DNA of 64,000 nt from Opitutales bacterium (GCA_028280845.1 JANQKZ010000041.1:8549-72548); one strand, 5' to 3'. Positions 11,354-56,242 are shown, counted from the stretch's first letter. Translations and numbers: made by a program. Notes: generated from the sequence alone by a model not told the origin.

Positions 11354-11507
11354 GCTCGTTCTAACCTTCACGGCCAAGGCAGCATCTACCAGCCCCAAAG
11401 CTTGTAAAAGCTGGCTTGCCAGCGATCCTCCACTCACAGAACCCAGCATCTCGAAGCATAGCGTAGACCCTGAGCGTAGTCGAAGGGGCAACGTCCAGAA
11501 ATTCCCC

Positions 11508-38955: not shown

Positions 38956-39964
38956 ACGTAGATTTTAAATACCTCCTTACGGGTTCCACTTTTTTATGAG
39001 GTTGGTCACTCGGGAAGGGTGGCCCATATTCAGCCGATCAGCAATCCAGGGATTATTTGCTGTGGTTTTTGACCTCAGGATAAAAGCGATTCTGGATTTC
39101 CATTCCGCCCCTTTGGGTGAGTGAGCAAGGTCATTTTCGGTTTTTCTCAGAAGCTTCAATTCATCCACCACCAAGTTCTCCCATTTTGACTCATTCAACA
39201 CTTTTAGATCTACTCCTTCCCATTCCACATCTGGATTTTCCCTGGTTATTTTCTTTTGAAGAGCCTGCTTTTCATCGTTCGAGCCAATAAACCAACCCTG
39301 GACATATTGGCTGGCCTGCTTTTTCAACTCAGAAGACTCCATCTTCTCATAACCCTTCAAATGGTTCGCATACCGGCGCACTCCGGCCCGAGTGTCAGGA
39401 AACCCCAGCTGTGACAGGAAACCTCCACGGCATAATCCTCTTCGGATTGATTCCTTAAAAAACTTCGGATAACTCGATAGAGGATACTCTCTCAATTCGT
39501 TAACAGAGACCAATCCGGCCCGAACGGGGTTGAGGTGGATGTAATCCACTAATCCGGACAAACTCCCGTCCTCTCCAACAATAAGCGACTTATACCTCCC
39601 CTGGAAGACATGCCCCCGCTCATTCCTCAATCGGTTAAAACGGGTGGCAAAGGTACTTTGCAACCACCGCATTCCCGCCACCAGATTCGGTTCTGGAGTC
39701 TCCACCGCCAGATGGTAGTGATTACTCATAATGACGTAGGCATGCATCTGCCATCCACACCGCTCTACCGCCTCAAACAAGGCCTTCTCGAAGGATTGTC
39801 CCGTCTGTTCCTTCAGAAACAATTCCTTGCGGTAATTCCCACGACTGATCACGTGGTACACCGCCCCAGGATATTCGATGCGCTGTTTCCTTGGCACATC
39901 AAACACTCCAGGTCAGTCATATTTGAAGGTCAATATTTAAATTATACGTTTGACCCCTTATTCC
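38941..39964. mobile_element. about 1-kb element: Y1 (IS200/RAYT-like) transposase gene flanked by terminal inverted repeats
   Basis: Left AAGGGGTCAAACGTAGATTTTAAATA (38946..38971) matches the reverse complement of 39934..39959 (AAGGGGTCAAACGTATAATTTAAATA), 24 of 26 by hand. The match is loosely extendable to 38941 and 39964. Both repeats abut or overlap the ends of truncated flanking genes. Confidence 0.7.
38977..39906 (-). CDS. IS200-like/REP-associated tyrosine (Y1, HUH) transposase with a DnaA-C-like HTH tail
   Basis: 309 aa. YHVISRGN, HUH motif SNHYHLAV, GHVFQGRYKS, and the tyrosine-helix context VDYIHLNPVRAGLV. The C-terminal ~50 aa (KSRIAFILRSKTTANNPWIADRLNMGHPSRVTNLIKKW) resemble DnaA domain IV. 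Confidence 0.8.
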   Translation of the reverse strand: MFDVPRKQRIEYPGAVYHVISRGNYRKELFLKEQTGQSFEKALFEAVERCGWQMHAYVIMSNHYHLAVETPEPNLVAGMRWLQSTFATRFNRLRNERGHVFQGRYKSLIVGEDGSLSGLVDYIHLNPVRAGLVSVNELREYPLSSYPKFFKESIRRGLCRGGFLSQLGFPDTRAGVRRYANHLKGYEKMESSELKKQASQYVQGWFIGSNDEKQALQKKITRENPDVEWEGVDLKVLNESKWENLVVDELKLLRKTENDLAHSPKGAEWKSRIAFILRSKTTANNPWIADRLNMGHPSRVTNLIKKWNP

Positions 39965-41536: not shown

Positions 41537-44500
41537 TTAATATATAATAAAGTGCGACAACTCTTGTCGACTATTAGGTATGACATTACCCATCATATCC
41601 AGATATTTACCATTCTTTCCTCCGATTTTATTCGGTTGAAAGATTCTGAAGTACCCACCATCCAAGTCCTCGACGATCTGTCGACCTGTTTTAGCATTCT
41701 CATATATTCGCTTATTTGACTTTGTTACCCAAGTGGTTATTTCACCACCATCTCCAAGATGACGTGTAATTGCTTTGGTAATATCAGCCTTCATCCAATT
41801 ATGCCCCCACTTCAGTCTTCTGGCTAGCCCAGGGGCGATCTCGCCTGCCGCCTTAGCGCCTCCTTTTTTAGCTGTAAAAATCACGCCAAGCTTGGCTGTC
41901 CCTATTGCTCCAAGTTTTCCTGCCCCCTTTACTACAGCTGTCGCGGCAGCTTTCACCAAAAAGACATCGGTGACCGCAATAGCGGAATTTACTATTCCCC
42001 AGCCCCATCTTCCATTTTGGAAATCGTTAACGGCGGCACGACCCGAGCCCCAGACAGGAATTAAGCCTTCCCAGAAACCTGGCGCACCTACACCTTTTTC
42101 AATAGCTGCAAAATTGTCCTCTACCAAGTCATCCCAATAGCCGGACCTAAAGTCTTTGGCTACCTGGCTATACATGTCTGCCTCGTGGGACATTTCATCG
42201 ATAAGGTAATCATCGGCTACATTTCCACCCCACGCAAATTGATCACTCCTAAAGCCATCCACGGTGTAAGAGTTCTGCCAGGGAGCAAAATTATTTACGT
42301 AAAGGTGTCCAGTACTAGGGGTGATCCATTCAATTACCTCAAATGTATCTAAAGTTTGTATCCCGGAAGTACTGCCCTTATTACTGCTCGAGGTTCCCAC
42401 ATTGGCGTAAACCACGAACGGATCCAAGGTTTGGATGGGCCCCTCACTTTGCTCAAAAATCTGATAATGTTTTCCGTACTCGCCCCGCATTAAGTCCTCA
42501 ACTGTGATCTCACTTTGAGGTAGGGTACTGTCACCAGAATAGTAATTTTGACTGGATAACCCAGGGCCCATATCCAGCATCAAGGTTTGAAGGGTAAGGC
42601 CCAGGTAATCCCAGTTATTTATCGGATCATTCCCGGCAAACCGGTAAAGATTCGAGCCACCGGCTTCTCCCAGTGGATCCCGGTTAAGGAACCGTCCAAA
42701 TTCAGGAGCGTAGAAGCGATACCCGAAGTAATGTAGCCCAGACTCGCGGTCCACCATCTTGGTGCTGAAGCGAATCGGATCATGGGCGGCCAAGGTGCTA
42801 CTTTCCGATTCCCGGATCAGCTCCCCGTAGGGACCGTATTCATAAACGGCCTCGACGGTGAAGACCCCTAGGCTCTCCTTCAACAGGCTGGTCACATTGC
42901 CATTGCCATCGTAGGTCGGATAGTACCGTCCCTGCCCGGCAATTTCCATCCAGAGCATGCCGCCGACACCGCCCGCGGTCTGGTAGCCCCCGTTCAGGTC
43001 CAGGCCCCAGCCGAATTTACGGACGATGGAGGAGCCATTGGTCTCCATGACGAGGTTCCACCCTTCGTAGACGTATTTGCGGGTCTTCGCGGGAGCTCCG
43101 GTGAAAGTGTTGGAGGCGTTCCAAACCTGCTTTCCTACCCGACGGCCCATGTAGTCGTAGGTGAACTGGATGGACACTCCATTGTTCACCGTAGCACTCC
43201 ACATCCGATAGATACGGTTCTCTCCATCATAAATGAAATTCCAGAGACTATCTTGAGTAGGATTCCCATTATCATCGAAATTCACCAACTCCGTATCATT
43301 TCTGCTAGCGGCATTTCGGTTTTCTGAAATAAGGAGATCAGCCCCACCTGCCCCTGCCCCAGCGAGCCCTGCATATAAGGTAATCGCATTATTGGCAGCA
43401 CTGGTGCTGCTGGTCTCATATCTATGGTAGAAATGTCCGCCATTCATTGTGGCGGCATCCTTTGTGCTTCCTGCCGTTTCCCCTACAAATACCTGGATTG
43501 GGCGGGATGGTGCACTGGTGGACTCGTCGTAGTTTACAAAGCCTTCTGTATGGATACTCGTATCGGGAAAACGGGTCGTAATTTCATTTGCCTGATTTAA
43601 TGCAGGACCGATGGTGGTATGGCTGGTATCCCTTGAATAGGATATTCTATTTCCTGCGTTGTCATACCCATATGTAAATGTCCTTCCCGGGACCGTGACT
43701 TTGCCCCCTGTATTTAAATCGCCGCTGTAGTAGGTAATGAACTGTTCCAATTCATTGCGATCCGTGTAACTGAAGGTTTTCAGCAGGCCGTCCTCCGGGT
43801 AATTGGCGTAGGACTGGCCCGTCATGAGCTCCTTGGACCGACGGCCCAGGAGATCATGTACATACTCTGATTTATGAAACGGACTCGCGCTGGCCGTCCC
43901 CAGGTGGGCGGAAATGGATTTGAGGAGGTTCCGGTAGTTGTCGTAGTTGTGGACCCGGTCTATATCATGGGGGCCGTCGATTTTTCGCACCAGCCCGTTG
44001 GGCCGCATGTTGTAGGTGAAGGTATAGCCATCGATGACCGCCCGGTCCAGCGTCCCATTATCCGCTCGGTAGTAAAAATAATTACTCAGCTCCGTATCCC
44101 CGCCCTTCTGTACATAATATCCCTGGTATCGGTAAGAGGAATCGTATTGGTGACGGATGGTTACTGAGTCTCCCGTATAATAGCTTCCCAGGGTTTCCGT
44201 GATGAGCTGCCCGTGCGTCAGGTCATAGTAGTGCGTTCGGGATCCGATTGCATCCACGACGCTGGATATGTTTCCCAGGCGGTTGTAATTGTAGTTGATA
44301 TTGGTCGTCGTCGGGTCGGCAGCCCCTCCCGATTGGAAATACTGTATTTCGTTCATCGACCCATCCTTCGAATAATAGGAATAGGTCGTATAATTCCCCT
44401 CCGGGTGGGTCCGTCGGATGAGCTGGTTCTGCGCATTGTAGAGGTAGGCGGTTGTTTTGCTTTTTCCGTCGACCTTGCTGTTAAGTAACCCCGAAGGCAC

Positions 44501-47500
44501 ATCATAATTCCAGCTTACCGTTTGAATATTGGACTCCGATCCGGGCCAACTGGAAGATGACCAAACGGAAGAAGTGCCACCAAAGGTGTGCATCTTTAAT
44601 AACTCTCCAAACACACTATATTCGTAACGGACAGGATTGGGCACATCTCCCCATATTTTTTCCAGTTCCCCTCCGTAGGTGTAATCAAAATAGGTCCGTT
44701 TGGATAAGGCGTTCTGGGTATAATCGATCAAACCGGTATTGGCATAAAAATACTTCTCCAGGCTGATCTCGGTCCCCGAATCATCCCTGGTCTTTACCTC
44801 GGTAAGTCGGGCCTTGGTCGAGTCATATATGTATTTCGTCCAGACACTGCGGTTATCCAACCCCTCGGCGGCGTTCACAGATCCGTCGTTATCAGTTTGA
44901 TCCGCCTCCGTCAACCTCCCCAAGCCATCGTAGCCGTAGACCGTAAAGGCGCCTGTCGATAGGGCCGACCTCCATAATAATCCGTTAATCAGGGTTCCGC
45001 TATCCTTTGCACTGTTGGCGTATTCCGTGAGCTCGGTTGTCAGGGTCAGTGGTTTATTGGCCCCATTACTGGTCGAGGTCACCTTAGAGGTCTGTTCCAA
45101 TACGCCGTTCAGGCCTTTGTATTTAGTCTCAAAAACAACGCCCCCGGAATAGGTAAGACGGGTCTCCCGGCTGCTGGTAATCAGCTTGCTCGTGGAATTA
45201 TTTTCCCGGTGATAGGTGCGGTATTTCGTGATCGCCCACCAGTCCGAGCTCACCTCCTCAAAGAAGGTGGCGTCTCTCTCCAATATCCGGTCCTGGTTCA
45301 GGGTGAGCGCATTATTCCCATCCAGGTCGAGATAGGACTGCTTCAACGCTCCAATCTCATAATAAGTAAAGCGGGTATCATTTTGCCCCGGAGTGGATAT
45401 CTTCAGGAGCTGTCCGGCTCCGACCTGGTTGTCTCCAATATATTCGTAGGTCGTGGTGATATCCCCGCTGGAATTCGTGTGGTTCGGTGTGACCTCCTTC
45501 GTAACCCGGCCCAGCCAGTCACGCGTGGTTTCAATTTTTCGAGTGGTGCTGCCACCAATGAATTGAGTAGCCACCTCACCCAAACTGGTTACAGAATAAT
45601 CGAATTCCTGGTCCACAATGGGATTCCAGTGAGGATCCGCAGCCGGGGCTCCAATCGAAGACCTACCGCCAATCTGATAATCTATTCGGCCATCATTGTA
45701 AAATTTGGTTACGAAGAAATTCGCCAGGGGGGTGTAGGAAGCTCCATTATCAAGAAGGTACTCGGTCCGCAGTTGGCCCCGGTAGCCATCCACCACGTCC
45801 CAACTGTAGGCAATACCCGTCCCATCCGGTTTCGTTTCCTCACGAAGGCGACCGCCCAGGTCGTATTCCCAGGATTCGGTTATCGACTCTCCGGATCCGC
45901 TGACCACTTTGTCGGTGGCATGCCCCATGGCATCGTAGGTCAGGGTCGTGACAATGTCGTTATGAGAGTAGCCGGATATCCCGCTGAACCCTTTCTTGGT
46001 TATGGTTCCAGGACGGCCCAGGTTGTCGTACGATGCATATTCGGTTCTTACTCCGGTTTCATCCACGGCATAATCCAGGAGTCCGTTTACATAGCCGAGC
46101 TCTACGGATTGCCCCTTCGAGTTGGTGGCCGTGGCGAGACGGTTTCCATTCTCGTAGGTAAAGGTGCTGGAAGATACTTCGGCAAAATTGGAATCGGTAA
46201 GGGTTCCGGATCCTGTTCCCCGATACACATAAGTGGCCCGTGCCACAATATTGCCTGCAACATCCCTTTCAACCCGCTCCATAGTGGATTGCTTGGGGAT
46301 TAAGTAAATATCCTCAACGTCACGGTCCGGATAGCCTCCGGTCGGGTCGAATCGGGTCATCTGGATTGCGCCGGAGACAGAGTTGCTGACCCCATTAAAG
46401 GAATACTCCACCCAATTACTTCCACTTTGCTCATGATAAAACGACTTCCGGGTATTGTCCGGGTAGGTAATCGAGATCAAGAGCCCCTCGAAATCGTTTC
46501 TGGGGGTCTGGATCGGCTCATAGGATTTAATGATCGTTTCCAGGTAGTCATTGGCTCCCGAGCTGTAATACTCCCGCTTGGTCGTAGTCAGGATTTGCTT
46601 GGAATTGAATGAACCTACGCCGTTATAAGAAAAGGTCTTTTTACTCAGGGTGGTAGACCCCACTTTGGTTAAAATTTGTGTAGGATACTCACGATAATAT
46701 GCAGGCCCCACACCGGATATCTGGTTGTCCCCCACATAGTAGAATGAAGTCACTTTGCTGGAAGCACTGGCTTGCGAGGGATGTGTTTGGGTCGATTTCC
46801 AGGGCTCATAGGTCGTTTTCACCAAGCCGAAGGAAAAGATATCGTTATCGTATTCGAATTTCTTCCAACCCCCTTCCGGTTTCAGGTAGGACTCCAGGCG
46901 GCGGTAGGATTCCTTATTGCTTGAATTCGTGTAGTAATAGTAAAGCCCGGTATACCGCACCCCGTCGGGGTCAGGCCTGGACACCCGCATTTCCTCTTCA
47001 CCTCCGATAACATCATATTCCTTCTCTTCCTTGAAATGAGTCGTCGTTCCATCGGTAATCTCAATCACATCCAGGTGGGTCCCGACCACCCCACTCCCAT
47101 TTCTGGTCCGGGTCTCCACGTAGTCCCAATTATAGGAAGCCCCATTGTAAGCGCCCCGCTTCAGTGTCCAAACCGGCCCCGTCGCGTTATAGGTCACATG
47201 GTAGGTTTGCCCATACCCGCCTTTTGACTTTCTGATCTGGAACTGGTTGTTAGCCGGTTTCTCAATCAGATACTCATAATAATAATCATTCAGGTCGGCA
47301 GCATGGATGGTAAACAGGCCGCTTCCCGACCAACTCGAATTTTCCAGGTCAGCCCTGTTATAAAATCGGATTTTATAACCATCCAGTGCAGGAGAAGCAT
47401 ACTCATCTCTAATATCCACCAAAAGGGATGGGGTCACAATTTGGCGCAGAACGCCTGAATTATGGTGCACATAAACGCCCACCACCGGCGAATTGGAGTA

Positions 47501-48091
47501 CTTCAATAAGCTGGGCGAGTAGATGCTCGCACTGAGGTTTTCCTCATGGATGGACAATTCACCAACCGGTTTTCCATTCGGCAAATACCCAAGCCCCACA
47601 CTCCAGTGAACACTGCTTAGAGCGAAACCGAGATCACTCCCTGCACCCCCACCATAATTGTCTTTGGGTAAAACGACCACAACCACTTCCTCATTGACTG
47701 GAATACTCCCCGCGGTCCCCGTAGCCTCCGCAGTCAGGACGGATGCGCCATCCAGATAGATTTGATACCCGGGAGGCGCATAGAGAAATACTGTGTTTCC
47801 GGTACAAAACTCAGATGAGAGCGTCATCACATATTCTTTCCCGAGTTCGATGTCCGTAATCTCCTCACTGGAGTATTCTGGAGCGCCGTTGACCCCATAC
47901 ACCGTGGGTCCCGCCGTTCCGAGATTGGCCGAAAACTCGGCGATGTCGTTTTGCCCATCCCCGGCATCATTTCCCATCGTGACATATAGCCCGATTGGAA
48001 CCGAAATCGGATTCTCAATGGACGCGCCCAGCAGCCCCGTTACTCCAACCACCAGAAAGGTGGAAATGATTCGTCCCCATGAATAGGTCAT
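41537..48091 (-). CDS. Rhs/YD-repeat polymorphic toxin with an N-terminal Sec-type signal and a 352-aa variable C-terminal tip
   Basis: 2184 aa. Signal-like N-terminus (IISTFLVVGVTGLLGAS). Dozens of YD repeats (YDAMGH, YDLGGRL, YDNLGR, YDGLGRL...). Core end PIRFSTKMVDRESGLHYFGYRFYAPEFGRFLNRDPLGEAGGSNLYRFAGNDPINNWDYLGL, then an unrelated lower-GC tail. Confidence 0.95.
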   Translation of the reverse strand: MTYSWGRIISTFLVVGVTGLLGASIENPISVPIGLYVTMGNDAGDGQNDIAEFSANLGTAGPTVYGVNGAPEYSSEEITDIELGKEYVMTLSSEFCTGNTVFLYAPPGYQIYLDGASVLTAEATGTAGSIPVNEEVVVVVLPKDNYGGGAGSDLGFALSSVHWSVGLGYLPNGKPVGELSIHEENLSASIYSPSLLKYSNSPVVGVYVHHNSGVLRQIVTPSLLVDIRDEYASPALDGYKIRFYNRADLENSSWSGSGLFTIHAADLNDYYYEYLIEKPANNQFQIRKSKGGYGQTYHVTYNATGPVWTLKRGAYNGASYNWDYVETRTRNGSGVVGTHLDVIEITDGTTTHFKEEKEYDVIGGEEEMRVSRPDPDGVRYTGLYYYYTNSSNKESYRRLESYLKPEGGWKKFEYDNDIFSFGLVKTTYEPWKSTQTHPSQASASSKVTSFYYVGDNQISGVGPAYYREYPTQILTKVGSTTLSKKTFSYNGVGSFNSKQILTTTKREYYSSGANDYLETIIKSYEPIQTPRNDFEGLLISITYPDNTRKSFYHEQSGSNWVEYSFNGVSNSVSGAIQMTRFDPTGGYPDRDVEDIYLIPKQSTMERVERDVAGNIVARATYVYRGTGSGTLTDSNFAEVSSSTFTYENGNRLATATNSKGQSVELGYVNGLLDYAVDETGVRTEYASYDNLGRPGTITKKGFSGISGYSHNDIVTTLTYDAMGHATDKVVSGSGESITESWEYDLGGRLREETKPDGTGIAYSWDVVDGYRGQLRTEYLLDNGASYTPLANFFVTKFYNDGRIDYQIGGRSSIGAPAADPHWNPIVDQEFDYSVTSLGEVATQFIGGSTTRKIETTRDWLGRVTKEVTPNHTNSSGDITTTYEYIGDNQVGAGQLLKISTPGQNDTRFTYYEIGALKQSYLDLDGNNALTLNQDRILERDATFFEEVSSDWWAITKYRTYHRENNSTSKLITSSRETRLTYSGGVVFETKYKGLNGVLEQTSKVTSTSNGANKPLTLTTELTEYANSAKDSGTLINGLLWRSALSTGAFTVYGYDGLGRLTEADQTDNDGSVNAAEGLDNRSVWTKYIYDSTKARLTEVKTRDDSGTEISLEKYFYANTGLIDYTQNALSKRTYFDYTYGGELEKIWGDVPNPVRYEYSVFGELLKMHTFGGTSSVWSSSSWPGSESNIQTVSWNYDVPSGLLNSKVDGKSKTTAYLYNAQNQLIRRTHPEGNYTTYSYYSKDGSMNEIQYFQSGGAADPTTTNINYNYNRLGNISSVVDAIGSRTHYYDLTHGQLITETLGSYYTGDSVTIRHQYDSSYRYQGYYVQKGGDTELSNYFYYRADNGTLDRAVIDGYTFTYNMRPNGLVRKIDGPHDIDRVHNYDNYRNLLKSISAHLGTASASPFHKSEYVHDLLGRRSKELMTGQSYANYPEDGLLKTFSYTDRNELEQFITYYSGDLNTGGKVTVPGRTFTYGYDNAGNRISYSRDTSHTTIGPALNQANEITTRFPDTSIHTEGFVNYDESTSAPSRPIQVFVGETAGSTKDAATMNGGHFYHRYETSSTSAANNAITLYAGLAGAGAGGADLLISENRNAASRNDTELVNFDDNGNPTQDSLWNFIYDGENRIYRMWSATVNNGVSIQFTYDYMGRRVGKQVWNASNTFTGAPAKTRKYVYEGWNLVMETNGSSIVRKFGWGLDLNGGYQTAGGVGGMLWMEIAGQGRYYPTYDGNGNVTSLLKESLGVFTVEAVYEYGPYGELIRESESSTLAAHDPIRFSTKMVDRESGLHYFGYRFYAPEFGRFLNRDPLGEAGGSNLYRFAGNDPINNWDYLGLTLQTLMLDMGPGLSSQNYYSGDSTLPQSEITVEDLMRGEYGKHYQIFEQSEGPIQTLDPFVVYANVGTSSSNKGSTSGIQTLDTFEVIEWITPSTGHLYVNNFAPWQNSYTVDGFRSDQFAWGGNVADDYLIDEMSHEADMYSQVAKDFRSGYWDDLVEDNFAAIEKGVGAPGFWEGLIPVWGSGRAAVNDFQNGRWGWGIVNSAIAVTDVFLVKAAATAVVKGAGKLGAIGTAKLGVIFTAKKGGAKAAGEIAPGLARRLKWGHNWMKADITKAITRHLGDGGEITTWVTKSNKRIYENAKTGRQIVEDLDGGYFRIFQPNKIGGKNGKYLDMMGNVIPNSRQELSHFIIY

Positions 48092-48107
48092 TTTAAATTC
48101 CTCCAGT

Positions 48108-48626
48108 TTACTCGTTTACCAGATGAGCGTGGTTTCGTTTTAAGTTTTCAATGGCCTTCAGGGCCCCCGGATGTTCCGGAACCGCCTGTAAGGCCCGCCG
48201 ATAGGCTTTCACCGCATTTTCCGGTTCAAATAAGATATGGGTATAGAGGTAACCCCCATCACAGTAGAGCGCGGCAAGCTCTTCCGGCGAAAGATCCCGG
48301 GCCTCGGAAATGGTTTGCTTTAAATCAGCTTCTAAGCGTTCACCCAGCGTCTTTGATAGTTCAAACTGGTTGTGCTCCCAGAGCTGACGAGCCACCTGAA
48401 TAGAGTAGGAGTACCGGGCGTAGACCCCCTTCCCCTTCTCCGCTTGAAACGCTTCTATGGCTTTCAATCGCTGGTTCGCCTGACCATATTTTTTCTCCTT
48501 TATAAGGGAAATGACTTCCTGCTTTACCTCTCGAAAGCGGGTCGTGTCGGAAATACTCTCGGACTCCTGCGCAGTGAGGGAGCCGCAAGTGAATAAGATA
48601 CAAAGGGAATAGAGCAGATACTTCAT
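48108..48626 (-). CDS. secreted TPR-like helical-repeat protein
   Basis: Start reset to ATG 48626 (MKYLLYSLCILFTCGSLTAQE signal peptide), 1 nt after the upstream stop. The C-terminal half has TPR-like A..Y..AL...P patterns. Ends 16 nt upstream of the rhs start. Confidence 0.5.
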   Translation of the reverse strand: MKYLLYSLCILFTCGSLTAQESESISDTTRFREVKQEVISLIKEKKYGQANQRLKAIEAFQAEKGKGVYARYSYSIQVARQLWEHNQFELSKTLGERLEADLKQTISEARDLSPEELAALYCDGGYLYTHILFEPENAVKAYRRALQAVPEHPGALKAIENLKRNHAHLVNE

Positions 48627-48627
48627 T

Positions 48628-49161
48628 TTAATTTCCGGGGCTGGTAATTTCAAAAGTGATGGGGGTGCCTGAACCTGGGGTAGAGGTCGTTCCTGCAGTG
48701 GGATCAAAATAGATATCAAATTCGTCCTTATTGGATATCCCGTCACTATCCAGATCTGAGGCCGCATCAGCCGACGAGGAGGGATTCAGCCCGTAGTGGG
48801 TTTCCCAGGCATCAAACATGCCGTCGCCATCAGAATCCTGGGTGGCTTCCGTATCAGAAAACCCATCCATATCCGCATCCACTGCGGCCCAGAATAAACT
48901 TCCCGTCTTTGCGTGAAAGCCAGGCTTGAGGACCACCCGATTCCGCGCCCAGAAGATGGAGTCTCCTCCGCTTTCAATGGAAACCCGAGTTTGGGTTGGA
49001 TTGTTTGTATCCTCTACGGTTTGAAGGATATCGTCAGAGACGTAATCCTCCACTTCACCATTGGACACCGTGGTATCCTGGATGATGGTGGTAGCTCCGA
49101 TGCAGAGCAGGGCACCCATGGCTATCCCAAGGGCTAGATGCAGTTTACCTGGTTGTTTCAT
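48628..49161 (-). CDS. secreted protein with thrombospondin-type-3-like calcium-binding repeats
   Basis: 177 aa with a signal/anchor segment (LALGIAMGALLCIGA). Asp-rich repeats DADMDGFSDTE, DSDGDGMFDAWE.HYGLNP, DLDSDGISNKDE. A VVLKPGFHAKTGSLFWA motif that I recall from surface proteins linked to RHS loci (from memory, unverified). Confidence 0.55.
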   Translation of the reverse strand: MKQPGKLHLALGIAMGALLCIGATTIIQDTTVSNGEVEDYVSDDILQTVEDTNNPTQTRVSIESGGDSIFWARNRVVLKPGFHAKTGSLFWAAVDADMDGFSDTEATQDSDGDGMFDAWETHYGLNPSSSADAASDLDSDGISNKDEFDIYFDPTAGTTSTPGSGTPITFEITSPGN

Positions 49162-49186
49162 GGTTATTTAAGATTCGGAAAGGGTG

Positions 49187-50149
49187 CTATGGAGTGAGCG
49201 TGTTCAACCGGGCCTCCAGCTCGGCATTGTGGTGTTTCAGTTCGGAAATTTCCTCCTGCTGTTGAATGAGGTAGAGCGTCAGTTCTTCCACCTTCTGCAG
49301 CAGCATCGCCTGGGTTTCCCCAACCGATGCTCCTTTGGCTTGAACCTCCTCAGCGTCCTTCACCCCTGGGAGTCGCTTTTCCTTTTCGATGTGCTCCGCC
49401 ACCTCCTCCAGGGGCATGAGCTCATAGTCCTCCTCAAAGACAAAGTCCGCCCAGTTGGATTCGACTATTATCTCTTTGGCGCGGGCTGTGCCATTGATGT
49501 CTAAATCATAAGAGGGGGTGTAGGTCCCTAAGCCTACCTTGCCGTCACCCTTAATGACCAAAGAATAATCGTGGGCTCCTTCATAATCCGTTATAAAACT
49601 AAATGCCCTATGGGCCGAATTGCCCTGTTCGGCCCGAAAGACAAAATTACCATTATTAGCTTCATCCTGAATCGAACGGAAAATTACATTGTTGTCATCC
49701 ACACCAATCTCCAGGGATTGATTGGAATCTCCCAAACGGGTGATATAAAAATTTTTTGTCGCTGTGTAGGAGTTGAAGTAAGCACTCCCCTCAACATGGA
49801 GTTTACCATTTGGAGAGTAGCTCCCTATCCCGACATCTCCATTCGGCATCAGAATCAGGCCGTTCACCCAGATCCCAGCAGAATCATCCCTACGGATAAA
49901 TTTCAATTGCCCATTGTTGTGGTGCTCAGCAATCCAATAGTCGGAAGGGTCAATAGAATCCGAGCTATTGAACCATTCAAGACGAGTATAAGAGGAATCA
50001 TGAATCCGAATATCTCCTCGGACATCTAAGGTTTCCCCAGGGCTGGTAGTCCCAATGCCAACATTTCCCGATGATGGGAAGGTGTTTTGCCCCCAGGCGA
50101 GAGACAAAGAAGAAAGGGCGCCTAGAAATAAATAGCATGTTTTGATCAT
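49187..50149 (-). CDS. secreted fibre-like protein, family member P6
   Basis: 320 aa with a signal peptide. N-terminal NTFPSSGNVGIGTTSP is identical to Pa. Conserved C-terminal module (ARAKEIIVESNWADFVFEEDYELMPLEEVAEHIEKEKRLPGVKDAEEVQAKGASVGETQAMLLQKVEELTLY) plus a coiled-coil tail. Confidence 0.8.
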   Translation of the reverse strand: MIKTCYLFLGALSSLSLAWGQNTFPSSGNVGIGTTSPGETLDVRGDIRIHDSSYTRLEWFNSSDSIDPSDYWIAEHHNNGQLKFIRRDDSAGIWVNGLILMPNGDVGIGSYSPNGKLHVEGSAYFNSYTATKNFYITRLGDSNQSLEIGVDDNNVIFRSIQDEANNGNFVFRAEQGNSAHRAFSFITDYEGAHDYSLVIKGDGKVGLGTYTPSYDLDINGTARAKEIIVESNWADFVFEEDYELMPLEEVAEHIEKEKRLPGVKDAEEVQAKGASVGETQAMLLQKVEELTLYLIQQQEEISELKHHNAELEARLNTLTP

Positions 50150-50997
50150 GGGTTGCTCCTCAAACTTCGATTCTCTTCACGGAGTGATTTTACCTCTTCG
50201 TTCAATTCAATGACATACAGTGTCAGCTCCTCCACCTTTTGCAGCAGCATCGCCTGGGTCTCCCCGACCGATGCTCCTTCGGCTTGGATCTCCTCAGCCG
50301 ACCTCACGCCAGGGAGGCGTTTTTCCCTCTCGATGTGCTCCGCCACCTCCTCCAGGGGCATCAGCTCATAATCCTCCTCAAAGACAAAGTCCGCCCAGTT
50401 GGACTCCACAATGATTTCCTTGGCCCGAGCAGTGCCATTTACATCCAACTTATGTATGGGAGAATTCGTCCCTATCCCAATTAAACCATCTCGTTGAACT
50501 GTCATTATGGTTAAGCTGTCATAACCCCCAGTAGATTTAGCGGCTTGGACGCGTATTTCCTCTTCAACTTCATGGTACTCAAAGCGCATCCCCTTCTCAT
50601 TCCATTCAGAGACAAGGGCCAGGTTGGGCCTTGTATTTTTTAACACGAGGTCAACCGAGGGGTTTGGAATTCCGATTCCTAACTTCTCCTTCAGATAAAG
50701 ATTTCCAGAGGAAAATAATTGGAAATATACAGTGCCCGAATGATAAAATCGCATCGACCCCTGGTAACTATCCAAACCCCAATCAACATACGGTGAGGGC
50801 GAAGAGAAATGAATTTCACCACCTTCGTAGACTGTGTTTTGGGATCTTAGCACTATCCTGCCATCCGTGGTATAAAAGGAATTGCTTACATCCAGTGCCC
50901 CAGTGACATCTACGTCCACAAAGGTATTGCCCCAGGACAAGCAGACGCCAAGCGGGCTGCTTAAGAATAACAGAACAAGGTATACTTTATTGGTCAT
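50146..50997 (-). CDS. secreted fibre-like protein, family member P5
   Basis: 283 aa with a signal peptide and a divergent body. The C-terminal module is identical to P4 over ~70 aa. ATGA overlap with P6. Confidence 0.8.
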   Translation of the reverse strand: MTNKVYLVLLFLSSPLGVCLSWGNTFVDVDVTGALDVSNSFYTTDGRIVLRSQNTVYEGGEIHFSSPSPYVDWGLDSYQGSMRFYHSGTVYFQLFSSGNLYLKEKLGIGIPNPSVDLVLKNTRPNLALVSEWNEKGMRFEYHEVEEEIRVQAAKSTGGYDSLTIMTVQRDGLIGIGTNSPIHKLDVNGTARAKEIIVESNWADFVFEEDYELMPLEEVAEHIEREKRLPGVRSAEEIQAEGASVGETQAMLLQKVEELTLYVIELNEEVKSLREENRSLRSNP

Positions 50998-51895
50998 GAT
51001 TCTCTAAACGACTGAGCCGTTTCTCCAGCTGTTGAATTTGTCGGTCCTTTTCGATTAAATGGAGTGTCAACTCCTCCACCTTTTGCAGCAGCATCGCCTG
51101 GGTCTCCCCTACCGATGCTCCTTCGGCTTGGATCTCCTCAGCAGACCTCACGCCAGGCAGGCGTTTCTCCCTTTCGATGTGCTCCGCCACCTCCTCCAAG
51201 GGCATGAGCTCATAGTCCTCCTCAAAGACAAAGTCCGCCCAGTTGGACTCCACGATGATTTCCTTGGCCCGGGCGGTACCATCCACGTCTAGCTCGTAGG
51301 CAGGGGCATGGGTCCCGACTCCTACCTTCCCGTCCTTCTTAACGACAAATCGTGGGTAGTGCCAGGTGGGATCTGTCAATACACTGAAATCCGCAGCATG
51401 CCCAGCCGCACGAAGCGTTAATGACCGATTATTTAATGTCTGAACCCCTGAGGGGCTGGAAGTAATCAAAAGCTCGAAGCGGTTGGCTTGCGAGCCCTCC
51501 AAGCGCTCGATGGAAAACAAGTCATTGTAATTAGGAGAGGCTATATGTAGGCGATCCTGGGGAACCGTAATTCCAACCCCCAAATACCCCAGCCGGCGTA
51601 AAACTATCCTGGTTTGATCCGACCCCGGGGTTTCCGACTCAAAAAACAAATCACCACTTTGGTTTTCATTCATCCAAATCCACCAATCATTACCACTTGC
51701 GTTATTCCTAAAACGCAGTCCAGGAGGATTCACGCCTGTGCCCTGCCCAATTAAATTAAAAGCATCATATATATTGTTTGGAATATCCAGTTCCCCATAA
51801 AGGCTATCTGACGCTGCATACGAGGATTTGAAAAACCCGATTAGAGAAAACAAAAGAATAACATGCTTAATTTTCACGACTAGCCTCCAACTCAT
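50987..51895 (-). CDS. secreted fibre-like protein, family member P4
   Basis: 302 aa with a signal peptide. The body is homologous to the Pa central block (FSIERLEGSQANRFELLITSSP..SLTLRAAGHAADFSVL). Conserved C-terminal module. Overlaps P5 by 11 nt. Confidence 0.8.
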   Translation of the reverse strand: MSWRLVVKIKHVILLFSLIGFFKSSYAASDSLYGELDIPNNIYDAFNLIGQGTGVNPPGLRFRNNASGNDWWIWMNENQSGDLFFESETPGSDQTRIVLRRLGYLGVGITVPQDRLHIASPNYNDLFSIERLEGSQANRFELLITSSPSGVQTLNNRSLTLRAAGHAADFSVLTDPTWHYPRFVVKKDGKVGVGTHAPAYELDVDGTARAKEIIVESNWADFVFEEDYELMPLEEVAEHIEREKRLPGVRSAEEIQAEGASVGETQAMLLQKVEELTLHLIEKDRQIQQLEKRLSRLENHDQ

Positions 51896-52943
51896 TGATT
51901 CGTCCCACTAGGGCCTCGTTCTTTTTATTGAGCTCAACAACGTAAAGGGTCAGCTCTTCCACCTTCTGCAAAAGCATCGCCTGGGTCTCTCCTACCGAAG
52001 CGCCTTCGGCCTGAATCTCCGTGGCAGACCTTACCCCGGGCAATCGTTTTTCCGTTAGGATGAAATCCTCAACCTCCTCCAGGGGCATGAGCTCATAGTT
52101 CTCCTCGAAGACAAAGTCCGCCCAGTTGGACTCTACAATGATTTCTTTCGCGCGAACAACTCCGTCGACTTCCAACTTGTTCTGCGGCGTATCCAAGCCG
52201 ATCCCCACATTGCCGTTGGCTGCTATGGTCATGCGGCCGATGTCACCGGTGATGAAGTGAATAGGAGCTGACCCGCCATTGCCGAGAACCATTCGATCGG
52301 CAGGACGCCCAGCCCAGCTCCTGAGTAGAACCGTTTTACTTAGAGGATAACCGGAGAGGTTGCCGGGCGTATTTTCGGTATAGAGATTAAGATTAAACCC
52401 GGTATCTAAGGTAGCTAAAGATAAGGCGGAGGCAACAGATGGCCCGGAAGAGTTATTGGTTACCCTTATAGTAGTCTCACCATCCTGGTCCCTCCTTAAA
52501 TCAAGTTCCTGGCCTGGAGAGGTTGTTCCTATTCCCACATTTCCAGTTCCTGCATCAATCGCCATCCGGGTAACAGAATCAGGCATGAAATAGATGTCCG
52601 CTTCAGAGCCGAAACTCCGAAGAATCAGGTCACTGCTGTTATTCGAAGTGTTATATGCGGTGTAAATCGTAGCCCATGCTGCTCCGCCATGGCGAAAATC
52701 TATGATGCTTCGTGAGTCGTTGCCAGTGCCCGAATCCAAATTGATCCGGAGTCCCGTTGTACTGTAATTAGTAAAATAAAAGGAACCATAGGTGGTATGG
52801 AGGTCAAAGTAGCCACCAGTCACCGTCGAGGTGTTAATCCCGATTTCATTGTTCGAGTGCACGACATTACCGGTGGTGGTCCACTGCCCCCAAGTGAGGC
52901 ACCAGGGAATAACGAAGCCAATAATCCAGGGTAGCGGTTTCAT
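51867..52943 (-). CDS. secreted fibre-like protein, family member P3
   Basis: 358 aa with a signal peptide. The body is homologous to P1 (RPADRMVLGNGGSAPIHFITGD). Conserved C-terminal module. Confidence 0.8.
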   Translation of the reverse strand: MKPLPWIIGFVIPWCLTWGQWTTTGNVVHSNNEIGINTSTVTGGYFDLHTTYGSFYFTNYSTTGLRINLDSGTGNDSRSIIDFRHGGAAWATIYTAYNTSNNSSDLILRSFGSEADIYFMPDSVTRMAIDAGTGNVGIGTTSPGQELDLRRDQDGETTIRVTNNSSGPSVASALSLATLDTGFNLNLYTENTPGNLSGYPLSKTVLLRSWAGRPADRMVLGNGGSAPIHFITGDIGRMTIAANGNVGIGLDTPQNKLEVDGVVRAKEIIVESNWADFVFEENYELMPLEEVEDFILTEKRLPGVRSATEIQAEGASVGETQAMLLQKVEELTLYVVELNKKNEALVGRINELEASREN

Positions 52944-52944
52944 C

Positions 52945-53847
52945 CTATTGTTCCTTCAGGGCGGTTAGCTCATGTTTCAGCGACTCGATCTCCTTTTGCT
53001 GCTGGAGGGTATACAAAGTCAGTTCCTCTATTTTCTGTAAGAGGAGCGCCTGCGTTTCCCCGAGGGAGGCCCCCGTATTTTGGACCTCCTCGGTCGAAGG
53101 CACGCCCGGCAACCGCCGATTGGTTTCTATATAAGCTCCGACTTCACCCAACGGCATGAGCTCGTAGTTCTCCTCAAAGACGAAATCCGCCCAACCCGTT
53201 TCCACAATGACCTCCTCGGCCCGGATCTTTCCGCCGACGTTTAAGAATTCGTCGAATGAACTCGTTCCGATTCCCACCTTACCGTAAAACTTCGTTTCTC
53301 CATTTGGGTAGATCTGAGACCTAATAAAAGGCAGCGAATTGGAATTTTGGTCACTGGTTGCTAACTTGATTCCGTTAACATCTTGAAGGATAAAGGAGGA
53401 AGAGATCCAACCCGCTATATCTGCATCAATGAGCGGCCAGGTATTATCATTCCGGCGATAGGTATTCCAAGACCACGTCGTCCCATACGAACCCTGGTCT
53501 CCAATGAAAGACCGACTGGGAAGGGCCAATTTATCATTACCTCCCCAGAAATCAGATATTACAGGAGCAGCCCCCAAAATGACTGAACCATCAGTAAATT
53601 TCGCAATACCCTCGATCACGACCCCTCCCTCGAAATCTCCATCAAAATTAACATAGAGCTGGTCACTCCCGTAATGCACTAATGCACGTTGAAGCGGTTT
53701 TGACCCTACACTACGGCCATCATTTGTTCCTAAATATAGGTCAGCGCCCTCAACCTCCAACGAGTCTGTTATGATATGAACTCCAAACAGTCCTGGGCCA
53801 TTTATGGAAAACAAAACTCCTGCTAAAACGACTATGCCAACCCTCAT
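52945..53847 (-). CDS. secreted fibre-like protein, family member P2
   Basis: 300 aa with a hydrophobic N-terminus and a unique body (LYLGTNDGRSVGSKPLQRALVHYGSDQLYVNFDGDFEGGV). Conserved C-terminal module (IRAEEVIVETGWADFVFEENYELMPL...LLQKIEELTLY). Confidence 0.8.
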   Translation of the reverse strand: MRVGIVVLAGVLFSINGPGLFGVHIITDSLEVEGADLYLGTNDGRSVGSKPLQRALVHYGSDQLYVNFDGDFEGGVVIEGIAKFTDGSVILGAAPVISDFWGGNDKLALPSRSFIGDQGSYGTTWSWNTYRRNDNTWPLIDADIAGWISSSFILQDVNGIKLATSDQNSNSLPFIRSQIYPNGETKFYGKVGIGTSSFDEFLNVGGKIRAEEVIVETGWADFVFEENYELMPLGEVGAYIETNRRLPGVPSTEEVQNTGASLGETQALLLQKIEELTLYTLQQQKEIESLKHELTALKEQ

Positions 53848-53856
53848 GCGAATTCC

Positions 53857-54873
53857 CTATTCTTTCAGTTTATCCAGTTCTCCCCTTAATTGGGTTATTT
53901 GCGATTGCTGTTCCTTTATAACCGAATCCTGCTCAATGAGGTAGAGGGTCAGTTCCTCAATTTTCTGAAGTAGAAGCCTCTGAGTCTCCCCGAGAGACAC
54001 CCCCTCCTCGAGCACCTCCGCCTCGCTGGGAATTCCCGGCAGGTGACCCTCCTGAGCAATGTGGGCTTTGACCTCCTGCAGCGACGGGAGCTCATAGGCG
54101 TCATCAAAGACAAAGTCCGCCCAGCCGGTTTCGACAATGATCTCTTCCGCCCGGACCCGACCGTTGACCTCGAGCTTATTGGCCGGGTTTGATGTGCCGA
54201 TCCCTACGTTGCCGTCACCGGCAATGGTCACTTGATGGCTGTCACCGGTGATGAAATGAATGGGAGCGTTTGATCCCGTGCCAATTACCATTCTGTCTGC
54301 CGGAGAGCCCGAATGGGTTCGGAGAAAAACAGAGTTTGCTTTGGGGAAGGCTGCAAAATCTCCGGAAGCGCCTGAACCCCATGATATGATATCAAAGCCG
54401 GCGGTACTGTTGGAAAGTAACATTAAAGAGGCTTGGGCAGACGCACCGCTACTGTCGTTCCGTATAGCCGCACGTACCATTCCATCTCTATTTTCTCGAA
54501 GCTCGAAAGAATAGGCCGGAGTCATCGTGCCAATGGCAATTTTCCCCTTAAAGTAGTTGACCTGATTTATGCCCGTCATGAAGACATGCCCGGCGTATAG
54601 GCGGGAATTCCCTCCGCCCTTGTAGGTGCCATCCGATACAAAACTCCATGTCCCCGGGGCTCCTCCCGCGGCGCCGTCATGGTGCCAGATGTGGTCTATG
54701 TTGTCGGAACCAGTGTTATTGGAGATGAGCGCGTAGTTGTTAAATAAAAGATCCTCGGTGATCGAAAATTGCCCGTATGCGGATCCCACACATACCAGCC
54801 AAACCAGCGCAAGACCTGCCTTTAAACAGTGTTGCCCCGTTAGCCGTGAAAAATGACTCCTATCCATTTTCAT
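53857..54873 (-). CDS. secreted fibre-like protein, family member P1 (first gene of the array)
   Basis: 338 aa with a signal-like segment (LALVWLVCVGSAYGQ). The body is homologous to P3. Conserved C-terminal module plus the longest coiled-coil tail. Confidence 0.8.
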   Translation of the reverse strand: MKMDRSHFSRLTGQHCLKAGLALVWLVCVGSAYGQFSITEDLLFNNYALISNNTGSDNIDHIWHHDGAAGGAPGTWSFVSDGTYKGGGNSRLYAGHVFMTGINQVNYFKGKIAIGTMTPAYSFELRENRDGMVRAAIRNDSSGASAQASLMLLSNSTAGFDIISWGSGASGDFAAFPKANSVFLRTHSGSPADRMVIGTGSNAPIHFITGDSHQVTIAGDGNVGIGTSNPANKLEVNGRVRAEEIIVETGWADFVFDDAYELPSLQEVKAHIAQEGHLPGIPSEAEVLEEGVSLGETQRLLLQKIEELTLYLIEQDSVIKEQQSQITQLRGELDKLKE

Positions 54874-54929
54874 AAATCTACTGTTGAAACTAAAAATGCA
54901 GTATCAGGCCCAGAGTTAAAGAAAAAATA

Positions 54930-54945
54930 ATTCACAATCGTGAAT
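54930..54945. promoter_or_regulatory. candidate operator palindrome upstream of the paralog array
   Basis: ATTCAC-AATC-GTGAAT, 57-72 nt upstream of the P1 start in an AT-rich region. Three further TTCAC direct copies lie at 54996, 55003 and 55022, around an A10 run. Confidence 0.3.
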
Positions 54946-55220
54946 GAAATTAGATGAACTAATGAAAATCCTCTTATCCATGAAAGACTTAGAGGTTCAC
55001 GTTTCACAAAAAAAAAATCATTTCACTAATAGGCCTCATAAGTTTCATACCTAGGCGGGCCGAATACCGAAGGAGTTGGAAATGAACCTATTCCGCTTGA
55101 AATCGAAGGATCCCATACTCGCAACCGTCTGTTTTCCTTTTAGGCTCTTCCCTATGTCTTCTGGCAGTTAGGAGAGGCAATAAAATGTTACCAAAGGACG
55201 ACCACTTCCCCTTCAACCTG

Positions 55221-55390
55221 CTTCCTTCAACTTTCAACCTTCAACCAATCCCCACCAACCATCGAAAAAGAAATCACCGCTCAGCCCATTGCTCCTCCAG
55301 CGCCTGAATCCGCTTCTCCTGCTCAATGATGTGCTGGATCAGCCCCTCGATCTTCCGCAGCAACACCGCCTGGCTTTCACCAGGGGACAT
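55221..55390. repeat. right copy of the island-bracketing direct repeat
   Basis: CTTCCTTCAACTTTCAACCTTCAACCAATCCCCACCAACCATCGAAAAAGAAATCACCGCTCAGCC... is homologous to 37203..37370 in the same orientation. Confidence 0.8.
55274..55390 (-). pseudogene. 38-codon remnant of a fibre-like family gene (extreme C-terminus only)
   Basis: The minus-strand translation MSPGESQAVLLRKIEGLIQHIIEQEKRIQALEEQWAER* matches the end of Pa (GESQAVLLQKIEELTLYIIEQEKRIQALEDELAEQ*). The same 3' flank follows. Confidence 0.7.
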
Positions 55391-55630
55391 CCTGGTATCT
55401 GGCCCCATGGCTCGGTGGCTTCCCGGATCCCTTGCATCGTAGCAGAGCCTGAGGGATTGACGGGGAGTTAGTCCTTTACCGCGTTTGGATATGCAATATC
55501 AGGGCATGGTTTTCATCATTTTTTACCGGATTGGGTGGATTTCGCTTTGCCAAATGGGGGTTTTTTCCGCACGGTCTAGGGTGAATTAACCACTGATAGC
55601 ACCTCTTTCCTGCCCCTCTACTAGCACACC

Positions 55631-56242
55631 ATGGGCGACCTATCTCCAGAAACCACGGCCATTCTTCAAGCAATTCAGGCTGAGTTGCGCAAGGAAGGAA
55701 AACCTTCCGAGGAAGAAGAAAAGACCACCCTCAATACCGTTTCCAAAATGATTGTGAATGTCCTCAAAGCCGAGGCGCTCACCATTTACAAGATCTGTCG
55801 CAAAGAGAATATCTTTCACTTCATTTATTACTCGCCGACCCTCACCCGGACCCCCTTCCCCAATTCTTCCCTGGTTGCGGTTCTGCAGGAAAAGTTGCTG
55901 GGCTACCGCCTACCCGAAGGGATGGGAATCGTGGGGCAAGTGATCGAAACGGGCCAACCCGATGTGTTCAAAAAGGCTCCGGAGGACAAACGGATGCTCG
56001 ATCTATCGGAATACACCGGCTTTTCCGTTCACAGCATGATGACCTTTCCCATCACTGCCAGGGAAACGCTGGGAGCCATTCAGATTTTGAATAAGAAGAC
56101 CACGCACGCCTTTGTGGAAACCGATGTAGTTTTCATGAACCGGCTCATGGAACCCCTTTCTTTTTACCTGTCCAAGGCCTGGGTTGACGATTTCGTTTTG
56201 ACAGAGGAAGAGAGAAAGATGCTATACTGTGAACACGCCTGA
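55631..56242 (+). CDS. GAF domain protein
   Basis: 203-aa ORF. GAF-like pattern (GIVGQVIETGQPDVF ... FSVHSMMTFPI ... LGAIQILNK). No output domain. Confidence 0.65.
   Translation: MGDLSPETTAILQAIQAELRKEGKPSEEEEKTTLNTVSKMIVNVLKAEALTIYKICRKENIFHFIYYSPTLTRTPFPNSSLVAVLQEKLLGYRLPEGMGIVGQVIETGQPDVFKKAPEDKRMLDLSEYTGFSVHSMMTFPITARETLGAIQILNKKTTHAFVETDVVFMNRLMEPLSFYLSKAWVDDFVLTEEERKMLYCEHA

Follow-up and report, generated by a model that had tools for sequence, protein, structure and literature searches.

We analysed a stretch of 64,000 nucleotides (nt) of DNA from an Opitutales bacterium (GCA_028280845.1, JANQKZ010000041.1:8549-72548), referred to here as the window, in which positions are counted from the first nucleotide. 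It contains a tandem array of six genes, P1 to P6, which encode predicted secreted fibre proteins with variable bodies, a conserved module and a short tail. The modules of P3 to P6 have probably been kept alike by homology-limited gene conversion between tandem neighbours, with the bodies and tails keeping histories of their own. Sequence comparison supports concerted evolution by gene conversion well for P4, P5 and P6, and makes it probable for P3. This had been proposed in the first-pass annotation of the DNA and was borne out by the low synonymous divergence and excess of shared synonymous codons in the modules, by a module tree in conflict with the relations of bodies and tails, and by the patch structure of P4, along with a sharp discontinuity in identity at the module limits.

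A repeat search of the array found a single family, made up of six 300-nt copies in direct orientation at spacings of 944, 844, 883, 1069 and 930 nt. A two-breakpoint scan of P4 against P5 placed the best tract at 51065-51271 in P4 and 50221-50427 in P5. These 207 nt contain 10 mismatches (95.2% identity), and the two proteins are identical over 73 amino acids (aa), from GTARAKE to EELTL, in close agreement with the approximately ten mismatches in 205 nt and 70 identical residues estimated by hand in the first-pass annotation. That annotation had held that uniform divergence along the genes would speak against exchange; we found 95% identity within the tract and 47% outside it. Over a fixed block of 216 nt, module identity was 93.5% for P4-P5, 86.6% for P5-P6 and 85.6% for P4-P6, and 80.6, 80.1 and 78.2% for P3 with P4, P5 and P6 respectively (81-88% at the amino acid level), while any pair including P1 or P2 reached 61-66%. 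The description of all four modules as near-identical therefore stands for P4 and P5, but P6 and P3 are clearly diverged (78-87%). The limits of the tract are nearly equal for all pairs among P3 to P6 except P4-P6, in which it extends further upstream (codon -36). Although the shared tract is real, it is not at the 3' end of the genes, since a divergent tail of 21-26 codons follows, and it is thus internal. The bodies gave within-genome BLASTP scores of no more than 50 bits, in keeping with the earlier view that they are unrelated or distantly related, with the exception of a 127-aa segment common to P1 and P3 (P1 residues 110-236 and P3 residues 134-259, 45% identical; approximately 54166-54544 and 52167-52544 in the DNA), which forms the C-terminal half of the P3 body.

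The array was compared with L001, a European Nucleotide Archive (ENA) metagenome contig reached via the protein P0002, a homologue of P5 with 41% identity along its full length. Assembly of a second data set (L002) gave an identical sequence over 6564 nt. L001 carries seven tandem family genes, X1 to X7, followed by genes for a 177-aa protein, a 175-aa protein and an Rhs protein, and is syntenic with the window. Residues 9-118 of the P4 body match X5 (57% over 113 aa, E=9e-40), the P5 body matches X6 (33% over 215 aa, E=7e-35), the P1 body matches X4 (42% over 220 aa, E=1e-47) and the P6 body matches X7 weakly (24%). The counterparts of P4, P5 and P6 keep the order of X5, X6 and X7. The modules of P3 to P6 are 81-99% identical to one another in amino acid sequence versus 58-69% to any X module; that of P4 is 99% identical to P5 but 67% to X5. 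In a neighbour-joining tree of the modules, P3 to P6 grouped with 100% bootstrap support and P4 with P5 at 99%, whereas the pairings expected from the bodies (P4 with X5, P5 with X6, P6 with X7, P1 with X4) all received 0%. Modules coevolving with their bodies would group with their counterparts. Those of P3 to P6 do not, which argues that the module has a history separate from that of the body. The modules of X6 and X7 also grouped together (99%), so that the same homogenising process has acted in the L001 relative. The start of the P6 module (NGTARAKE..ESNWADFVF) resembles that of X7, with which the L001 array ends.

The tail of P4 adds to this comparison. It matches the tails of X5 and X4 at 12 of 20 residues, versus no more than 7 of 20 for every other gene of the window or L001. 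P4 thus appears to combine an X5-like body half, a P5-like module and an X5/X4-like tail. Since body and tail are both X5-like and the module is P5-like, we read this as an internal, non-reciprocal conversion patch and not the product of a crossover. Unequal crossing-over was considered as the main process and rejected, as it would fuse bodies with foreign tails, and the sole testable tail, that of P4, matches the positional counterpart of its own body.

The same comparison bears on a different order of events, in which a recent tandem duplication was followed by replacement of bodies and tails through recombination with cassettes or horizontal transfer. Several features of the family are compatible with this. 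The bodies are mosaics of pieces of approximately 115-125 aa: besides the half shared by P1 and P3, residues 104-218 of P6 match residues 39-152 of X1 at 57%, and residues 137-250 of X1 match residues 102-216 of X6 at 68%. The reverse pattern exists as well, with X2 and X4 being 81% identical in their bodies and 70% in their modules, and array copy number differs, with six genes in the window and at least seven in L001. Yet the body and the tail of P4 would both have to have been replaced by X5-matching sequence by chance, and the common order of P4-P5-P6 and X5-X6-X7 would have to have arisen after the replacements. A single internal patch in each gene explains the data much more parsimoniously, and we regard duplication with replacement as unlikely.

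Synonymous sites separate exchange of DNA from constraint on the protein. By the method of Nei and Gojobori (NG86), the P4-P5 modules had a synonymous divergence (dS) of 0.33 and a nonsynonymous divergence (dN) of 0.006. In the flanks of the same pair (18 codons upstream and 22 downstream), dS was saturated and dN was 0.37-0.73, so that synonymous divergence in the module did not equal that of the adjacent sequence, as the first-pass annotation had supposed it would under purifying selection only. The modules of P4 and P5 differed from that of P6 by a dS of 0.74-0.83 and a dN of approximately 0.04, and P3 from P4, P5 and P6 by a dS of 1.0-1.2 and a dN of 0.08-0.13; comparisons of P1 or P2 with other modules were saturated for dS (dN 0.23-0.36). 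We also calculated the fraction of identical amino acids encoded by the same codon, which needs no substitution model, and applied a binomial test against a within-genome baseline of p0=0.45. This same-codon fraction was 55 of 68 (0.81, p=1e-9) for P4-P5, 0.65-0.67 for P4 or P5 with P6 (p=3e-4 to 1e-3), and 0.55-0.58 for P3 with P4 to P6, where it was marginal (p=0.03-0.08). P1 or P2 against any other copy gave 0.32-0.49, mostly 0.41-0.49, and the baseline between loci, taken from 223 modules at 125 loci, was 0.38 +/- 0.10 (99th percentile 0.63). Homogenisation at the DNA level is thus clear from these codons for P4, P5 and P6, and marginal for P3.

These results weigh directly on the reading that purifying selection only, acting on a constrained domain with biased codon usage, preserved the modules with no exchange of DNA between paralogues. 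The module is indeed strongly conserved across phyla, 31 of its 76 columns are invariant among the eight copies in the window, and the tract boundaries are domain boundaries. GC content at third codon positions (GC3) of 0.66-0.74 in all six array modules and in P8, including P1 and P2, also indicates some bias at the nucleotide level. P1 and P2, under the same constraint and codon usage, nevertheless share far fewer codons than P4 and P5. The modules of X5 and X6 are 71% identical in amino acid sequence versus 99% for P4 and P5, and the module tree contradicts body and tail relations with 100% versus 0% bootstrap support. The synonymous excess and the tree conflict largely refute selection alone for P4 to P6, and it is very improbable as a full account.

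GC3 was 0.50 in the module of a truncated family member elsewhere in the window (P7) and 0.43-0.55 in the bodies; the window genes for MutS, the Rhs protein and a 2-oxoacid oxidoreductase had values of 0.58-0.66. The pattern is weaker in L001, with modules up to 0.68 and bodies at 0.32-0.44. The raised GC3 of the modules could reflect GC-biased gene conversion or codon selection.

Equally improbable is a lineage-specific co-evolution in which the modules converged at the protein level to fit a shared partner, such as the Rhs protein or an assembly factor. Module genes do consistently precede one large secreted protein, and the P3 to P6 clade was better supported by codon positions 1 and 2 only (96%) than by third positions only (33%, in a noisy tree). 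Convergence at the protein level cannot account for the synonymous-codon excess in P4 to P6, and P1, P2, P7 and P8 of the same genome, of which P1 and P2 lie in the same gene run, were not homogenised.

It is hardly credible that a metagenome assembler created the mosaic by joining or collapsing fragments at the repeat: although the Logan assembly of SRR20820735 stops inside an exact run shared by P4 and P6, which shows that the repeat can interrupt an assembly, the copies are too different to have collapsed (5-20% of sites), runs of 32-48 nt are short enough for ordinary reads to span, the body and tail of P4 both match X5, gene order agrees with L001, and L001 was assembled identically in the two ENA data sets. 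The Logan contig in question (SRR20820735_8116, L158) is 100% identical to window positions 62943-51224 and ends in the 48-nt run common to P4 (51200-51247) and P6 (49412-49459). In practice, these exact repeats of 32-48 nt break short-read assemblies.

Several points weigh against gene conversion as we have described it. The synonymous signal of P3 is weak (dS approximately 1.0-1.2), and its membership of the group comes from amino acid sites and the tree, sites which selection could shape too. The tract stops where conservation of the protein across the family also stops, and the position of the boundaries alone does not distinguish the end of a conversion from the end of constraint. L001 is a distant relative and the sole one compared, in which P6 and X7 match weakly and P2 and P3 have no counterpart; among genome and metagenome contigs searched with the P5 module, the closest matches were 63-68% identical in amino acid sequence, and no strain-level relatives were found. 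The window itself is a single metagenome-derived contig, where the joins across the P4 to P6 modules depend on one assembler and on agreement with L001. Finally, conversion is read from the comparison of sequences and not from an event seen directly.

The first-pass annotation had considered the exchange recent. The sequences do not support this, as P4 and P5 already differ by approximately 5%, exact runs reach no more than 48 nt and most of the variable sites fit a tree. Eight of the 11 informative sites among P3 to P6 support the split of P4 and P5 from P3 and P6, and private substitutions number 25 in P3, 11 in P6, four in P4 and three in P5. The longest exact runs are 39 nt for P4-P5, 48 nt for P4-P6 and 32 nt for P5-P6; P1 and P2 share runs of no more than 21 nt with other modules. 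Long identical tracts and mosaic site patterns, the signs of ongoing exchange sought in these sequences, were not found, nor were strain-level relatives in which variants might be seen. The sequences read as the outcome of a few successive old events and not of ongoing shuffling. Exact runs of 32-48 nt approach the shortest length at which RecA-type pairing is efficient, and exchange is therefore still conceivable.

How the exchange works at the molecular level, in what order its events fell and what the module does are matters of inference. The module would be the sole stretch in which neighbouring paralogues retain enough nucleotide identity for homologous pairing. Short, non-reciprocal conversion patches of approximately 210-235 bp may have copied one module over another several times, by RecA-type pairing and subsequent repair. 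Site patterns suggest that homogenisation joined P3 and the P6-type module first, P6 and the P4/P5 lineage next, and P4 and P5 last; the P3 module would then be the oldest member of the homogenised group. The patches would end where homology ends, at the ..LDVNG junction after the last GxVGIGT motif upstream and at ..EELTL at the start of the tail downstream, and bodies and tails would therefore keep older histories of their own. Purifying selection on the module would preserve similarity and so keep conversion possible. P1 and P2, at approximately 63-65% identity, may have fallen below the level at which recombination works and would now evolve independently.

The earlier proposal that exchange between the repeats diversifies the bodies has indirect support only. 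It is plausible in view of the mosaic bodies and the differing copy number, but nothing in the sequences ties these to module exchange as their cause. Exchange inside the module homogenises and does not diversify, and the distinct tails argue for patch conversion over crossovers.

All genes of the array are on the minus strand. P1 (53857-54873, 338 aa, module 53938-54165, which is 61-65% identical to the other modules at the nucleotide level) is the first and consists of an N-terminal signal peptide as judged by eye, a variable fibre body, the module and a coiled-coil tail. It is followed by P2 (52945-53847, 300 aa, module 53011-53232), for whose body no relative was detected in either the window array or L001; the modules of both genes are outside the homogenised group. 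The remaining genes are P3 (51867-52943, 358 aa, module 51939-52166), P4 (50987-51895, 302 aa, module 51056-51283), P5 (50146-50997, 283 aa, module 50212-50439), which was the protein used for AlphaFold models, and P6 (49187-50149, 320 aa, module 49268-49495), the last. Six genes are thus present in the array, as first annotated, but the window holds eight module copies. The other two, P7 and P8, were located with a hidden Markov model of the module run on the window. P8 (37256-38194, minus strand, module 37310-37537) lies downstream of the Rhs region and is complete, with 312 aa. P7 (38590-38955, minus strand) is a truncated member reduced to its last GIGT motif, its module (38644-38871) and its tail. 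P7 and P8 have a WSDFVF subtype of module in common, and their modules group at 76-87% bootstrap support. P7 abuts a gene for a REP-associated tyrosine transposase (38977-39906; NCBIfam E=4.5e-21, 75.3 bits against a cut-off of 80), which suggests that it was cut by an insertion or rearrangement.

Three further minus-strand genes follow P6. The first encodes a 177-aa secreted protein (48628-49161) between the array and the Rhs gene, which is 64% identical in amino acid sequence to its L001 counterpart and Asp-rich, with repeats that resemble calcium-binding repeats on reading of the sequence. The second encodes a secreted protein of approximately 175 aa (48108-48635, 33% identical to its syntenic L001 counterpart); a Pfam scan gave no match for either protein. 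The third encodes an Rhs/YD-repeat protein of 2184 aa (41537-48091, Pfam RHS_repeat), which is 57% identical to its L001 counterpart over 737 aa. Gaps between neighbouring genes are -29 to +9 nt from P1 to P6, and +25, -8 and +16 nt onward to the 177-aa, 175-aa and Rhs genes. This packing suggests that the run from P1 through the Rhs gene, which is its last gene, is probably a single operon. Antisense open reading frames (ORFs) of 77-106 aa lie opposite the modules on the plus strand (49184-49504, 50239-50484 and 51059-51292). Their translations are similar to each other (..LLQQHRLG..), and they are a by-product of the repeated module and not independent genes. Elsewhere in the window, the MutS protein (11352-14081) is 64-65% identical to Coraliomargarita MutS, and its closest uncultured relatives (P0122 and P0123, from JGI data) are 84% and 72% identical. 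MutS thereby assigns the bacterium to the order Opitutales of the Verrucomicrobiota.

The six array proteins follow a common plan: an N-terminal hydrophobic stretch, a variable body with one to three GxVGIGTxxP motifs, the conserved module of approximately 75 residues, from RA(K/E)E..W(A/S)DFVF to LLQK(I/V)EELTL, and a divergent coiled-coil tail of approximately 21-26 residues. Judged by eye, the hydrophobic stretch resembles a signal peptide in P1, P3, P5 and P6 and, less clearly, in P4, but not in P2. The bodies have matches among PHROG tail-fibre families, and a profile of the family matches Bdellovibrio beta-helices, the Bd2133/Bd1334 fibres (8OND, E=1.2e-21; 8OML, E=1.2e-12). An AlphaFold2 model of P5 (mean predicted local distance difference test score, pLDDT, 81.7) matched the same Bdellovibrio structures, 8OND among them (E=8e-7), and T4 gp34 in Foldseek. 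Profiles and models thus point to secreted fibres of the trimer-type beta-helical class.

No Pfam or NCBIfam model matched the module, and a phmmer search of it against the PDB returned nothing meaningful. In a model of the module fragment (pLDDT 89.8), two short helices are accompanied by a terminal helix of 38 residues. Foldseek matches of the whole module were mostly to peptidase S74 or intramolecular chaperone auto-processing (ICA) domains, none of them significant: the MyRF ICA (7DC3) had a template modelling (TM) score of 0.43 at E=3, and eight BFVD S74/ICA entries (ranks 4, 5, 7, 9, 15, 26, 32 and 38) had TM scores of 0.23-0.45 at E=0.04-0.4. The family profile touches MyRF at the beta-helix junction. 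PF13884 (S74) gave no match at E<=1 in the six array proteins, and none at E<=0.01 in 123 sequences (7 window module fragments and 116 homologues). Bdellovibrio mosaic adhesive trimeric (MAT) fibres of the S74 subgroup have an autoproteolytic chaperone domain with an SDxxxK motif directly after the beta-helix (PMC10769870). This Ser-Lys motif is absent at the beta-helix junction of the window proteins, where the stretch reads (N/D)G(T/x)(A/I)RA(K/E)E(I/V)(I/V)VE, with no conserved Ser; the Lys gives way to Glu in P1, P2 and P8, and P7 has Asp instead. Since the module occupies the position of the S74 chaperone of phage tailspikes and MAT fibres, we take it to have a role in folding and trimerisation. 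It may be a retained, non-cleaving C-terminal domain of this kind, and we have not filed it as an S74 member. The weakness of the structural likeness on which, with the position in the protein, this role is based (Foldseek E=0.015-3) counts against it.

The family extends far beyond the window. A profile of the eight window modules retrieved 34,540 clusters at 50% identity from 1.84 billion representatives, 31,288 of them at E<=1e-10. Most of the named sources are Bacteroidota, and Verrucomicrobiota, Ignavibacteria and others account for some. Some matches have two or three module copies in one predicted protein (for example P0241, 1975 aa). A literature search covering the family, DUF6443 and combinations of S74, Rhs and tail fibres turned up no description of it. 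The module was found in 26 IMG/VR loci, which are predicted viral contigs, and a tblastn search of 50,697 GenBank phage records gave no match. A clear phage context is seen in one IMG/VR contig of 53,831 nt (L133), where a 221-aa module protein (7695-8360) follows a 1326-aa tail protein and an amidase. Tandem arrays are common elsewhere, with 14 copies in Zunongwangia pacifica, 13 in Leeuwenhoekiella aestuarii, seven in Belliella filtrata and six in Marinifilum breve. On another NCBI contig (131,333 nt), the proteins P0005, P0006, P0007 and P0011 carry modules of the P3 to P6 type on quite different bodies, with P0006 approximately 91% identical to P5 in amino acid sequence by eye. This locus may belong to the same genome, in which case homogenisation would have been ectopic, or to a sister genome.

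Likeness of modules on unlike bodies recurs in this wider set. The same-codon fraction was at least 0.75 in 20 of 254 gene pairs within loci, and in 15 of these the bodies were less than 30% identical; the 15 include pairs from Flavivirga, Tenacibaculum, Ulvibacterium, Zunongwangia, Leeuwenhoekiella and a Verrucomicrobiota metagenome-assembled genome. A pair from Flavivirga serves as an example, with modules 99% and bodies 38% identical (modules at the nucleotide level). Together with the mosaic bodies and the reverse case of X2 and X4, this suggests that the histories of body, module and tail are separable across the family. By analogy with phage tail fibres, recombination at conserved linkers would produce such separable histories. 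Phylogenies of these genes based on the module will mislead.

A large secreted protein on the same strand followed the module gene or array in 67 of approximately 99 loci with enough downstream sequence, and about half of the downstream neighbour genes start 30-300 nt from the module end. The downstream protein was of the DUF6443/Rhs type in 28 loci, among them the window, L001 and all arrays of 5-14 copies. In 22 loci it was an S8 subtilase with a type IX secretion system (T9SS) sorting domain, and in 17 an unannotated T9SS-tailed protein of approximately 720 aa. Examples of loci with such a downstream protein are L005 (3073-6651), L040 (10421-12496), L050 (2738-4903) and the window (41537-54873). 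This arrangement suggests that module genes are functionally partnered with the downstream secreted protein. It is possible, and we put it forward tentatively, that the array is the targeting part of an undescribed and very widespread effector-delivery arrangement, in which short secreted trimeric fibres with exchangeable receptor-binding bodies would have the module in common, and the module would dock or co-assemble them with the downstream protein. The partner might, with similar reserve, be the Rhs toxin here, and in Bacteroidota DUF6443/Rhs, a T9SS subtilase or other T9SS cargo. If docking were true, conversion would be selected and not merely tolerated, since each fibre must fit a single partner, and arrays of 5-14 copies would be libraries of target specificities. 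A strict form of docking is at odds with P1 and P2, which lie in the same gene run but were not homogenised. The family draws attention in any case as a very large one with no model or description, encoded just upstream of Rhs toxins or T9SS-secreted proteins in two thirds of the loci examined.

Two known systems for varying surface proteins do not fit this array. Silent-cassette antigenic variation of the pilE/pilS, vls or MgPa type has one expression site and promoterless, truncated donors; the six genes here are complete ORFs with gaps of -29 to +9 nt, and only P7, outside the array, is truncated. Shufflons and invertible tail-fibre segments of the Gin, Cin or Min type have inverted crossover repeats and an adjacent site-specific recombinase. 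We found no inverted repeats of at least 30 nt in 46000-56000, all module copies are direct, there is no recombinase-sized ORF inside the array, and a transposase-like gene was seen only at 38977-39906.

The closest likeness in protein architecture is to the MAT fibres of Bdellovibrio bacteriovorus (Caulton et al. 2024, PMC10769870; 8OND, 8OML, 8ONC). These share a signal peptide, a trimer-type beta-helix and a GxxGIGT capping motif with the array proteins, have many paralogues per genome, are chimeric with parts exchanged between paralogues, and, in their S74 subgroup, carry a chaperone domain after the beta-helix, in the position of the module here. MAT fibres are longer (600-1100 or more aa), with a conserved N-terminal domain of approximately 130 aa and a variable C-terminal tip, whereas the array proteins have 280-360 aa, a variable N-terminal part and a conserved module near the C-terminus. 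The array genes also differ in lacking the S74 motif, in being tandem and in their link to Rhs. No shared N-terminal domain of the MAT type was evident, as the N-terminal parts of P1 to P6 have no significant mutual similarity; the solved MAT structures cover C-terminal parts. The module may also resemble the peptidase S74/ICA domains of endosialidases, phage tailspikes and MyRF, which follow a triple beta-helix and end in a long helix able to form a trimeric coiled coil. The module differs from them in having neither a PF13884 match nor SDxxxK, with G-T-[AI]-R-A-[KE]-E at the equivalent stretch, and the structural E-values are not significant.

In their modularity, the array genes resemble phage receptor-binding proteins, of which tail-fibre mosaicism in T-even and lambdoid phages and tailspike anchor domains are examples. 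In both, a conserved module serves as a recombination linker beside highly divergent receptor-type domains. Exchange occurs between genomes in the phages but between tandem neighbours here, and most copies of the module belong to arrayed cellular genes with a signal peptide.

Interlocus gene conversion itself is well known from tufA/tufB, rRNA operons, and Helicobacter pylori babA/babB and other Hop genes with conserved end segments, and concerted evolution by gene conversion in bacterial paralogue families was reportedly reviewed by Santoyo and Romero in 2005. As in those families, paralogues within the genome are closer than orthologues, homogenisation is limited to the homologous segment and includes synonymous sites, and exchange is non-reciprocal and patchy. 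The differences are that the homogenised segment is here an internal module of approximately 210 bp between a nearly unalignable body and a divergent tail, that the genes are tightly packed in tandem, probably in one operon, and that the family is undescribed and the events are old. Gene conversion is thus a known mechanism, and the new part is the clarity of the example and the large, effector-linked fibre family in which it is found. The example is unusually clean, with an internal patch of approximately 210 bp homogenised and the body and tail on either side still matching counterpart genes elsewhere. It offers a natural case of homology-limited conversion shaping modular surface proteins, and of paralogue escape at approximately 65% identity.

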